This document shows, piece by piece, positions 37,227 to 55,817 of a DNA stretch of 64,000 nt; position 1 is the stretch's first letter, and each line of letters starts with the position of its first letter. The stretch lies in the NCBI RefSeq assembly GCF_003334405.1, contig NZ_QOWM01000002.1, one strand, 5' to 3'. Origin of the DNA: Escherichia coli. GTDB taxonomy: Bacteria > Pseudomonadota > Gammaproteobacteria > Enterobacterales > Enterobacteriaceae. A program made the translations under genes and the position numbers. The notes beneath the pieces were generated by a model that worked only from the letters and a program-made list of their open reading frames with translations, did no database searches and was not told the origin of the DNA.

Positions 37227-37268
37227 TGCCGGATGCGACGTACGAGTGTTACGCATGTCGCATCCGAC
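37227..37268. repeat. REP-like palindrome between convergent recD and argA
   Basis: GCCGGATGCGACG...CGTCGCATCCGAC imperfect palindrome. Confidence 0.5.
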
Positions 37269-40455: not shown

Positions 40456-41553
40456 ATGAAAGGACGTTGGGTAAAGTACCTTCTTATGGGCACGGTTGTG
40501 GCAATGCTTGCCGCCTGCTCTTCCAAACCAACCGATCGCGGACAGCAATATAAAGACGGGAAATTTACCCAGCCTTTCTCTCTGGTGAACCAGCCAGATG
40601 CCGTTGGCGCGCCGATTAACGCCGGTGATTTTGCCGAGCAAATTAACCATATCCGTAATTCGTCACCGCGTCTGTATGGCAACCAGAGTAATGTTTATAA
40701 CGCGGTGCAAGAGTGGCTGCGCGCAGGCGGTGATACCCGCAATATGCGCCAGTTCGGCATTGATGCCTGGCAGATGGAAGGTGCCGACAACTATGGTAAC
40801 GTGCAGTTTACCGGTTATTACACGCCGGTAATTCAGGCGCGCCATACCCGCCAGGGCGAGTTCCAGTATCCTATTTACCGTATGCCGCCAAAACGTGGTC
40901 GTCTGCCGTCTCGTGCGGAGATCTACGCGGGGGCATTGAGTGATAAATATATTCTCGCTTACAGTAACTCCCTGATGGATAACTTCATTATGGATGTGCA
41001 GGGTAGTGGGTATATCGACTTTGGTGATGGCAGTCCGCTTAACTTTTTCAGCTATGCAGGGAAAAACGGTCATGCCTATCGCAGCATTGGTAAGGTGCTG
41101 ATCGACCGTGGCGAAGTGAAAAAAGAAGATATGTCGATGCAGGCGATTCGTCACTGGGGCGAAACACACAGTGAAGCCGAGGTTCGCGAGCTGCTGGAAC
41201 AGAACCCGTCTTTCGTCTTCTTTAAACCGCAATCTTTTGCTCCGGTGAAAGGGGCAAGTGCGGTGCCGCTGGTTGGTCGCGCGTCAGTTGCCTCTGATCG
41301 TTCCATTATTCCGCCAGGTACTACCTTGCTGGCAGAAGTGCCGTTGCTGGATAATAACGGCAAATTTAATGGTCAGTACGAACTGCGTCTGATGGTGGCG
41401 CTGGATGTCGGTGGTGCAATCAAAGGCCAACACTTCGATATCTATCAAGGGATCGGGCCGGAAGCCGGACACCGCGCAGGTTGGTACAACCACTATGGAC
41501 GTGTCTGGGTGCTGAAAACCGCCCCGGGCGCAGGTAACGTCTTTAGCGGCTGA
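40456..41553 (+). CDS. mltA: Membrane-bound lytic murein transglycosylase A (lipoprotein)
   Basis: 365 aa from ATG 40456 (MKGRWVKYLLMGTVVAMLAACSS..., lipobox LAAC); the 508-aa track ORF reads through the tRNA and is rejected. Confidence 0.93.
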   Translation: MKGRWVKYLLMGTVVAMLAACSSKPTDRGQQYKDGKFTQPFSLVNQPDAVGAPINAGDFAEQINHIRNSSPRLYGNQSNVYNAVQEWLRAGGDTRNMRQFGIDAWQMEGADNYGNVQFTGYYTPVIQARHTRQGEFQYPIYRMPPKRGRLPSRAEIYAGALSDKYILAYSNSLMDNFIMDVQGSGYIDFGDGSPLNFFSYAGKNGHAYRSIGKVLIDRGEVKKEDMSMQAIRHWGETHSEAEVRELLEQNPSFVFFKPQSFAPVKGASAVPLVGRASVASDRSIIPPGTTLLAEVPLLDNNGKFNGQYELRLMVALDVGGAIKGQHFDIYQGIGPEAGHRAGWYNHYGRVWVLKTAPGAGNVFSG

Positions 41554-41640
41554 TGTGATATTCTGTATGCCGTTTTTACGGATATGACAGGGTGAGGGGT
41601 AACCTCACATCCTGATTATTGACTAAGTGCGCGTTGTTCA

Positions 41641-41738
41641 TGCCGGATGCGGCGTGAACGCCTTATCCGGCCTACAAATCATGCAAATCCAAAATATTGC
41701 AGGAGTTATGTAGGCCTGATAAGCGTAGCGCATCAGGC
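41641..41738. repeat. BIME: two inverted REP elements
   Basis: GCCGGATGCGGCGTGAACGCCTTATCCGGCCTAC (41642-41675) and GTAGGCCTGATAAGCGTAGCGCATCAGGC (41710-41738) in head-to-head arrangement. Confidence 0.8.
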
Positions 41739-41750
41739 ATTTATGCGTTT

Positions 41751-41777
41751 AGGGTGAGGGATAACCTCGCCCTTTTT
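41751..41777 (+). terminator. Hairpin + T5 just upstream of tcdA
   Basis: GGGTGAGG-GATAA-CCTCGCCC followed by TTTTT; could terminate mltA read-through. Confidence 0.45.
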
Positions 41778-41791
41778 AATTCTGAGGTGCT

Positions 41792-42598
41792 ATGTCTGTG
41801 GTAATTAGTGATGCATGGCGTCAGCGTTTTGGTGGCACAGCGCGTCTGTATGGTGAAAAAGCGTTGCAACTGTTTGCTGACGCGCATATTTGTGTGGTTG
41901 GTATCGGTGGTGTCGGTTCCTGGGCGGCGGAAGCGCTGGCGCGCACGGGGATTGGCGCAATCACGCTTATCGATATGGATGATGTGTGCGTCACCAATAC
42001 CAATCGGCAAATTCATGCCCTGCGCGATAACGTTGGGCTGGCAAAAGCGGAAGTTATGGCGGAGCGTATTCGCCAGATTAACCCGGAGTGCCGTGTAACG
42101 GTGGTGGATGATTTCGTGACGCCGGATAACGTAGCGCAGTATATGAGCGTGGGTTATTCGTACGTGATTGATGCCATTGATAGTGTACGGCCCAAAGCGG
42201 CGCTGATTGCTTATTGTCGGCGCAATAAAATCCCACTGGTCACAACCGGTGGCGCGGGTGGGCAGATTGATCCGACGCAGATTCAGGTTACCGATCTGGC
42301 GAAAACGATTCAGGACCCGCTGGCGGCGAAGTTGCGCGAGCGCCTGAAAAGCGATTTTGGCGTAGTGAAAAACAGTAAAGGTAAGCTCGGCGTGGATTGC
42401 GTGTTTTCTACTGAAGCACTGGTGTACCCGCAGTCAGACGGTACGGTGTGTGCGATGAAAGCCACGGCAGAAGGGCCGAAGCGGATGGATTGTGCATCTG
42501 GATTTGGCGCGGCAACGATGGTGACCGCCACCTTTGGGTTTGTTGCGGTTTCTCATGCGCTGAAGAAGATGATGGCGAAAGCGGCGCGTCAGGGTTAA
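41792..42598 (+). CDS. tcdA: tRNA threonylcarbamoyladenosine dehydratase (ThiF/MoeB-like E1)
   Basis: 268 aa; nucleotide-binding motif VVGIGGVGSWAAEALAR. Confidence 0.92.
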   Translation: MSVVISDAWRQRFGGTARLYGEKALQLFADAHICVVGIGGVGSWAAEALARTGIGAITLIDMDDVCVTNTNRQIHALRDNVGLAKAEVMAERIRQINPECRVTVVDDFVTPDNVAQYMSVGYSYVIDAIDSVRPKAALIAYCRRNKIPLVTTGGAGGQIDPTQIQVTDLAKTIQDPLAAKLRERLKSDFGVVKNSKGKLGVDCVFSTEALVYPQSDGTVCAMKATAEGPKRMDCASGFGAATMVTATFGFVAVSHALKKMMAKAARQG

Positions 42599-42606
42599 AC
42601 AATCAG

Positions 42607-42637
42607 GTCGGATGAGACGCGAACGTCTTATCCGACC
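42607..42637. repeat. REP-like palindrome between convergent tcdA and csdE
   Basis: GTCGGATGAGACGCGAACGTCTTATCCGAC. Confidence 0.55.
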
Positions 42638-55787: not shown

Positions 55788-55817
55788 GCCGGATACGACG
55801 TTTGCGGCGTATCCGGC
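55788..55817. repeat. REP element between convergent fucO and xni
   Basis: GCCGGATACGACGTTTGCGGCGTATCCGGC palindrome. Confidence 0.65.

Follow-up and report, generated by a model that had tools for sequence, protein, structure and literature searches.

We analyzed a 64,000-nt stretch of Escherichia coli DNA (the window) in which a short spacer separates mltA, encoding murein transglycosylase A, from tcdA. The mltA coding sequence occupies 40456–41553 on the + strand, with the end of the open reading frame at 41553 (stop codon TGA, 41551–41553); its start at 40456 was set from the 1098-nt length of RefSeq mltA in identical E. coli sequence. The tcdA feature, also on the + strand, spans 41784–42598 and includes a GAGG ribosome-binding site (41784–41787) and an ATG at 41792, 15 nt past the T-run of the mltA terminator. 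The mltA-tcdA region of the window matches K-12 (NC_000913.3, 2945843–2946080, reverse orientation), and REP features are no longer listed in the current annotation of NC_000913.3. A promoter scan of 41300–42000 gave no candidate. Directly past the mltA stop, GCCGTTTTTACGG forms a small hairpin of its own. A short direct repeat, GCCGTTTTTA (41569–41578) and GCCCTTTTTA (41769–41778), lies before the left of the two hairpins described below and at the end of the right one, and is probably due to chance. More REP-like matches are found in the window at 37228–37268, 42607–42619, and 55788–55817, and the tcdA-csdE spacer, just 3′ of tcdA, holds one of them.

An earlier note on this sequence had described a pair of direct repeats in the spacer, and we confirmed both positions on the + strand: AGGGTGAGGGGTAACCTCAC at 41589–41608 and AGGGTGAGGGATAACCTCGC at 41751–41770. 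They agree in 18 of 20 letters, and their starts are separated by 162 nt. A separate repeat search of the window returned the same pair, and no match within three mismatches arose in 100 dinucleotide-preserving shuffles of the window. Each copy can form a hairpin, as the note had stated, with folding energies of −15.4 kcal/mol (left) and −17.2 kcal/mol (right). The left copy (41589–41613, + strand; AGGGTGAGGGGTAACCTCAC-A-TCCT) forms a hairpin with a bulge, lacks a T-run, and borders directly on the A end of the following element; because this fold, with its 1-nt bulge, extends to 41613, the whole 23-nt hairpin was duplicated and not merely 20 nt. The right copy (41751–41777, + strand), detected by a terminator scan as well as by folding, has a 9-bp stem in a stem-loop at 41751–41773 and then T5 at 41773–41777. 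The feature expected of an intrinsic terminator, a GC-rich stem-loop with a T-run, is present in the right copy and in the empty allele discussed below; the left copy lacks it because it has no T-run. The fold and the T5 support the suggestion that the second copy is a terminator, and we regard it as a functional-looking, predicted intrinsic terminator of mltA. The loops of both copies have the same orientation, making these direct and not inverted repeats, which excludes a fold-back or inverted-copy origin of the second hairpin.

Between the two hairpins lies an inverted REP pair, as the note's head-to-head REP elements implied; the repeat search of the window placed its inverted arms at 41662–41676 and 41709–41723. 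From left to right, the element consists of an A-end motif, GATTATTGACTAAGTGCGCGTTGTTCA (41614–41640, + strand); a Y-type REP or palindromic unit (41641–41675, + strand), classified according to the description in PMC3333891; a 34-nt L linker (41676–41709, + strand), recognized by the L consensus and by alignment with 10 other copies; a Z1-type REP (41710–41739, − strand), inverted relative to the Y unit and delimited by its arms and by alignment; and a truncated B-end motif, TTTATGCGTTT (41740–41750, + strand), delimited by alignment of 11 BIME-1 copies. BIME-1 (RIP/RIB) is defined as a Y REP, an L linker, and an inverted Z1 REP (PMC3333891), and the mltA element is a BIME-1 because it has one Y unit and one inverted Z1 unit with the 34-nt L between them. 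It aligns over its full length with 10 Y-L-Z1 copies, it is a single, non-tandem, extragenic copy between the mltA stop and the tcdA start, and it belongs to a set of many dispersed copies, with at least about 39 matching places per genome.

Within the linker, 41681–41705 lies within two mismatches of the L consensus, and 41675–41717 matches Rfam RF02751 (ES036) with 46.5 bits (gathering score, 37.6). The RF02751 family (ES036/CssrF sRNA) itself appears to have been modeled on a dispersed BIME-1 segment and not on a single-copy gene. The L linker of BIME-1 is the region reported to carry an IHF site, and from its likeness to that linker 41676–41709 may hold a putative one. An L-motif scan of viral contigs gave chance matches in AT-rich phage DNA only, and a looser L-motif search over all retrieved loci added no loci and returned only chimeric metagenome contigs.

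The sequence preceding the Y REP (27 nt, 41614–41640) is a dispersed motif and not unique spacer; this A-end motif recurs 5′ of a Y REP elsewhere, at about eight detectable places in K-12. Alignment of 11 copies end to end gave a 154-nt consensus, TCAGATTGTTGACAAAGTGCGCGTTGTTCA - Y - L - Z1 - AATTTTGCGTTTGTCATCAGTCTCA, which folds as one stem-loop (−66.7 kcal/mol) and has terminal inverted repeats: in the consensus, the A end TCAGATTGTTGACAAAG pairs with the reverse-complemented B end TGAGACTGATGACAAA at 13 of 16 positions. The A end is the left terminal inverted repeat, and the TCA that starts its consensus overlaps 41611–41613. The A boundary is nearly identical across the 11 aligned copies. 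The B end varies among them, being full length or 13 or 17 nt short, and at mltA it lacks the terminal 13 nt of the consensus (...GTCATCAGTCTCA).

We then compared alleles of the spacer. The full mltA-tcdA structure, taken as a 438-nt query region, is present in 2752 of 5426 complete E. coli genomes. Alleles sampled from the remaining genomes measure 276 nt; comparing spacers with and without the BIME, as the note had proposed, thus gave a difference of exactly 162 nt in the sampled strains, equal to the repeat spacing. The occupied-only segment can be placed at 41609–41770 (+ strand) in the allele alignment, this being one of several equivalent registers. The empty alleles (ST131, O111:H8, and NIST0056) read GAC-AGGGTGAGG-GRTAA-CCTCACCCT-TTTTT-AATTC and have a single, perfect hairpin (−17.7 kcal/mol) followed by T5. 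Because they are 162 nt shorter and carry one hairpin, the occupied allele amounts to an element of ∼140 nt plus a duplication of the whole hairpin. The sampled BIME-less genomes hold one hairpin, which bears out the note's proposal of a terminator hairpin duplicated at a REP/BIME insertion site, and the contrary arrangement, both copies in strains lacking the BIME, was looked for in the sampled strains and not found. A 38-nt terminator probe matched 8199 places in the 5426 genomes, ∼1 per empty and ∼2 per occupied genome, and the hairpin is therefore limited to the mltA-tcdA locus.

The flanks of these alleles bear on how they are related. The ST131 empty allele (loop G) matches the K-12 occupied allele in its left-flank haplotype and loop base, and the O111 empty allele (loop A) resembles the occupied allele of the E. 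coli species representative (L006), with two flank positions differing. This pairing of empty and occupied alleles is consistent with precise loss of the element; recombinational allelic exchange would also explain it. Among the few alleles read, none was a recombinant empty allele combining loop G with stem G, the kind that would prove excision from an allele of the K-12 type.

To read the polarity of the change, we took tcdA neighborhoods from 80 species representatives and read their mltA-tcdA spacers. A single hairpin with T5, in a spacer of 70–77 nt, is found in Citrobacter amalonaticus, C. sedlakii, Citrobacter sp. NCU1, and Phytobacter massiliensis, and also in at least six Enterobacter and two Leclercia genomes. 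Since Citrobacter, Phytobacter, Enterobacter, and Leclercia all have the single hairpin, the single terminator is the older state. The occupied form is found in L006, in Escherichia sp. E1V33, and in E. albertii; the two hairpin copies of L006 are identical at 20 of 20 positions. The unusual truncated B end TTTATGCGTTT, in direct contact with the right copy, is common to all three and indicates a single old insertion in the Escherichia lineage. The empty alleles of E. coli are then probably secondary, precise losses via the direct repeats, and so do not directly show the original target. The polarity of the insertion, read from alleles and not from an observed event, rests on outgroups and parsimony.

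We conclude that the original spacer held one intrinsic terminator, AGGGTGAGG-GRTAA-CCTCACCCT with T5; that BIME-1 was joined to the 3′ foot of its hairpin, between stem and T-run; and that the occupied allele carries the whole hairpin twice in direct orientation, in effect a hairpin-sized target-site duplication in which the T-run was lost from the left copy and T5 retained by the right one. Our confidence that the mltA-tcdA spacer holds a BIME-1 insertion with a duplicated mltA terminator is high.

Other repeats also occupy this spacer in relatives. Salmonella enterica subsp. arizonae, Enterobacteriaceae bacterium RIT714, and Phytobacter diazotrophicus carry other REP-type palindromes there, just upstream of the single mltA terminator hairpin; the mltA-tcdA spacer has been colonized repeatedly by different repeats. 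The 663-nt spacer of Enterobacteriaceae bacterium UBA5654 illustrates another way of remodeling it: it holds four to five tandem repeats of the last mltA codons (…GGGACGGGTAACGTGTTTAGCGGCTGA), and a boxC-like-looking palindrome, CCCTCTCCC…GGGAGAGGG, is joined to each.

The mltA locus taken alone holds an ordinary, known repeat, and the informative part is the insertion footprint that recurs at other loci. Our survey comprised 13 BIME-1 loci, drawn from a metagenome scan, 400 kb of K-12, and a few BLAST matches. At five of these 13, direct repeats of a locus-specific hairpin abut the element ends, and do so exactly. Besides mltA-tcdA, with a flanking hairpin repeat of 20–23 nt, these are yqeA-yqeB, where GGCCGGGTGGGTAATACCATCCGGCC is a perfect 26/26 repeat around an element with full A and B ends (length difference between alleles, 180 nt; 1649 genomes occupied); fbaA-mscS, with a repeat of ∼37 nt that has one gap and includes the terminator A-run (167 nt; 3719 genomes occupied); mscK-rsmS, which has its own hairpin as a direct repeat, diverged in the K-12 copy; and yvcK-uvrB, with an 18/20 repeat in one lineage and the right copy lost from K-12. 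Empty alleles with a single hairpin were recovered at yqeA-yqeB, fbaA-mscS, and mscK-rsmS; yvcK-uvrB yielded none. Flank-repeat alignments scored 15.5, 28, 25.5, and 16 against a cross-locus null maximum of 10.5 (n = 90 control pairs); the diverged K-12 copy at mscK scored 8, under that maximum. In the first 250 kb of K-12, an unbiased sample, all three canonical Y-L-Z1 elements show the duplication.

A stable hairpin ends 0–4 nt from the A end at 10 of the 13 loci, and one more locus has a hairpin directly against its B end. At several loci the A side alone is next to a hairpin, and two loci lack one altogether. At dacB-obgE (L226:30340–30680 compared with L227/L228), where the alleles differ by 145–146 nt, the empty allele reads hairpin-TTTTGC-TGATTAACGC. 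Its occupied counterpart has the element at the hairpin's 3′ foot and no second hairpin copy, the 6 nt TTTTGC having been replaced. This is a second class of insertion outcome; hairpin duplication is not obligatory. The BIME-1 at yqjG-yhaH is degenerate and fixed in nearly all strains. At yhaC-rnpB in K-12 (L225:19600–19940, − strand), the element has short inverted, not direct, flanks (…GCGGGTT | element | AACCCGC…), and gives the impression either of interrupting a hairpin or simply of having terminal pairing that reaches outward. Two metagenome contigs join the left flank of mscK, inside the element, to the right flank of another BIME-1 locus, which in one of them (L150, as opposed to L127) is mltA-tcdA; these joins are most likely assembly chimeras caused by the repeat.

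Related arrangements were found at the orthologous mltA terminator of other genera, where the terminator sequence differs from the E. coli hairpin. In three genomes of the Cedecea clade, Cedecea colo and two Enterobacter-labeled genomes with Cedecea-like spacers (L045, L047, and L061), the orthologous hairpin ACGGGCTGTATAATCAGCCCGT is duplicated, with the copies 149–162 nt apart. The inserts between them have no recognizable E. coli-type REPs; their ends are A/B-like: the left one shows GAGGTTGCTGACAAAG, and the right one, when reverse-complemented, TCAGACCACTGACAAACC. The same flank with a single hairpin is found in Cedecea neteri, which serves as the empty relative. In Kosakonia sp. S29, the mltA hairpin is duplicated around an element with A/B-like ends and different REPs. 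A further variant lies at yvcK-uvrB in E. coli GMF054, where an insert of ∼115 nt with a boxC-like core, CCCCTCACCCTCTCCCCGGAGGGGCGAGGGG, and ends resembling the BIME-1 A/B termini immediately adjoins the 5′ foot of the terminator hairpin, which is single and not duplicated. Because they are seen on REP-less, other-REP, and boxC-like inserts, the A/B ends look like the functional termini of a wider family.

The explanation that we consider likely is that BIME-1 was joined at the 3′ foot of the terminator hairpin and the hairpin duplicated, in a structure-directed integration. Integration would be guided by the structure of the DNA and not by its sequence. With the hairpin extruded, one strand would be broken or joined at its 3′ foot and the other broken at the opposite foot, and gap filling would then copy the hairpin twice; a single break would leave no duplication. 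Transcription of mltA would continue past the left copy and the REP pair, and the right copy would be where it stops. The 20–23-nt direct repeats around a 140-nt palindrome would also permit precise loss, giving the single-hairpin allele found in about half of E. coli.

Among candidate agents, TnpA_REP (RAYT), a REP-associated HUH/Y1 enzyme, would be the most plausible, as hairpin binding and C^T cleavage close by are both among its activities. Its C^T cleavage takes place in and around BIMEs, including at sites some way from them (PMC3333891). No target duplications arise with Y1 transposases of the IS200/IS605 type (PMC3333891), and RAYT would therefore need to act in an unusual way. Our confidence in the enzymology, including the role of TnpA_REP, is low to moderate. 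The junction sequences have C^T at the repeat boundary at four of the five loci; we dropped this as a RAYT signature, since any terminator is expected to show C^T. No rule relating A-to-B orientation to replication or transcription emerged among the K-12 loci: five of seven share one orientation in the left replichore, with transcription in either direction.

A serious rival, which we consider possible and less probable than integration, dispenses with a transposase. By copy-choice, a nascent-strand hairpin would detach at its 3′ foot, copy a BIME-1 elsewhere from A to B, and re-pair at or before the hairpin start on the exposed template, so that the hairpin is copied again. This would account for the constant junction of the A side with the hairpin 3′ foot, the variable B end (full length or 13 or 17 nt short), repeats ranging from 0 to ∼37 nt, and the lack of the fixed stagger expected of a classical transposase. 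A 4-nt microhomology, TTGC, at the return junction of fbaA-mscS also speaks for it. Repeat lengths of 0–37 nt together with variable B ends fit copy-choice as well as they fit an enzymatic process. However, switching driven by microhomology does not predict an A boundary that is nearly identical in 11 copies, the return junction at mltA shows no microhomology (GCGTTT|AGGG versus ATGAC|AGGG), and that at yqeA-yqeB shows only 1 nt. Conserved inverted-repeat ends that are common to REP-less elements of other genera look, moreover, like recognition sites.

It is very improbable that the two hairpins are an ancestral tandem terminator pair between which REPs settled later, the single-hairpin alleles being deletions unrelated to insertion. 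The age of the insertion, which is shared by E. coli, E. albertii, and Escherichia sp. E1V33, would agree with such a history, as would the ease with which direct repeats around a palindrome are deleted and the match of both kinds of empty allele to the flank haplotype of an occupied one. Against this stand the single hairpin at the same spacer length in three Citrobacter species, Phytobacter massiliensis, at least six Enterobacter, and Leclercia; the element with a duplicated hairpin at four other E. coli loci, the hairpin differing each time; the same architecture with different elements at the orthologous terminator in other genera; and repeats that adjoin the element ends exactly. The note's other suggestion, that hairpin, BIME, and hairpin form an unrecognized composite repeat unit that moves whole, draws on the symmetric look of the window and is refuted by the uniqueness of the hairpin to the mltA-tcdA locus, since the motif lies nowhere else in 5426 genomes and each duplicated-hairpin locus has its own hairpin, present also in the empty allele (four loci recovered).

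Structure-directed integration, our preferred reading, can be extended to the elements of other genera in a way that we offer tentatively and think somewhat doubtful. BIME-1 may belong to an Enterobacterales family of mobile palindromes defined by the termini TCAGATTGCTGACAAAG ... CTTTGTCATCAGTCTCA. The family would integrate by recognition of an extruded hairpin at its foot, in most cases that of a terminator, with a hairpin-sized duplication; other members would appear to carry boxC or REP-less cargo, and RAYT would possibly be the catalyst. If this were true, it would supply the missing integration step in REP/BIME spread, the target choice and duplication mode would be undescribed for any bacterial transposon, and, with the palindrome cut at its two feet, a working terminator would be retained on the downstream side.

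About 1% of the E. coli genome consists of REP/BIME repeats, whose spread was still described as poorly understood in 2021 by a laboratory working on TnpA_REP (PMC8266576). Any mechanism for that spread is constrained by a reproducible insertion footprint, and the one described here has four parts: an A end at the 3′ foot of a resident hairpin, frequent duplication of the whole hairpin, a variable B end, and precise, reversible loss. The footprint explains why BIME-1 is placed at the 3′ ends of transcription units. Termination need not be destroyed by BIME-1 insertion, since the T-run stays with the downstream copy, and because direct repeats promote clean excision, presence/absence polymorphism of BIME-1 is frequent. 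In about half of E. coli strains, the mltA mRNA should be longer by 162 nt and carry a REP pair just before tcdA. The mltA, yqeA, and fbaA terminator hairpins provide defined substrates on which to test the RAYT enzyme.

The abstract of a 1997 paper by Bachellier is said to mention excisions of whole BIME-1. Polymorphism among strains is known, with 71% of BIME-1 length lying in strain-specific loops (PMC1187871). In the BIME literature that we consulted, we found no description of a hairpin-sized target duplication, of a preference for hairpin feet, or of the A/B termini as element ends common to REP-less elements, any of which the primary papers of the 1990s may already describe.

Among known systems, BIME-1 (RIP/RIB) is the same element as that at mltA: inverted Y and Z1 units, a conserved 34-nt L, and a single extragenic copy after a gene, with dozens per genome. 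It is known at the 3′ ends of E. coli transcription units and is the enterobacterial counterpart of REPINs. With MITEs (ERIC/IRU, Correia, and YPAL), the element has in common that it is short and non-coding, with terminal inverted repeats (13/16 in the consensus, the B end being truncated at mltA) and a fold into one long stem-loop, and that direct repeats of target DNA flank it and both occupied and empty sites exist. Classical MITE target duplications are 2–10 bp long and of a fixed length set by the transposase. Those of BIME-1, in contrast, measure 20–37 nt, coincide with a whole stem-loop, depend on the locus, and are absent at dacB-obgE. To our knowledge, no cognate transposase with matching ends is known for BIME-1. 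A 2011 review described REPs as being without MITE signatures.

The hairpin foot recalls the IS200/IS605 and RAYT systems, whose HUH/Y1 enzymes recognize hairpins and cut single-stranded DNA at a set distance from the foot, much as the junction here lies at the hairpin foot and then C^T. IS200/IS605 elements, however, insert beside a short sequence without duplicating it, whereas we found duplication at at least five loci, namely mltA and four others. Robart, Seo, and Zimmerly reportedly showed in 2007 that group IIC introns insert just past intrinsic terminator hairpins. Those introns are retroelements with a reverse transcriptase and do not duplicate the hairpin, and BIME-1 has no intron features; what the two share is the use of a terminator DNA stem-loop as the target, with landing on the 3′ side of the stem.
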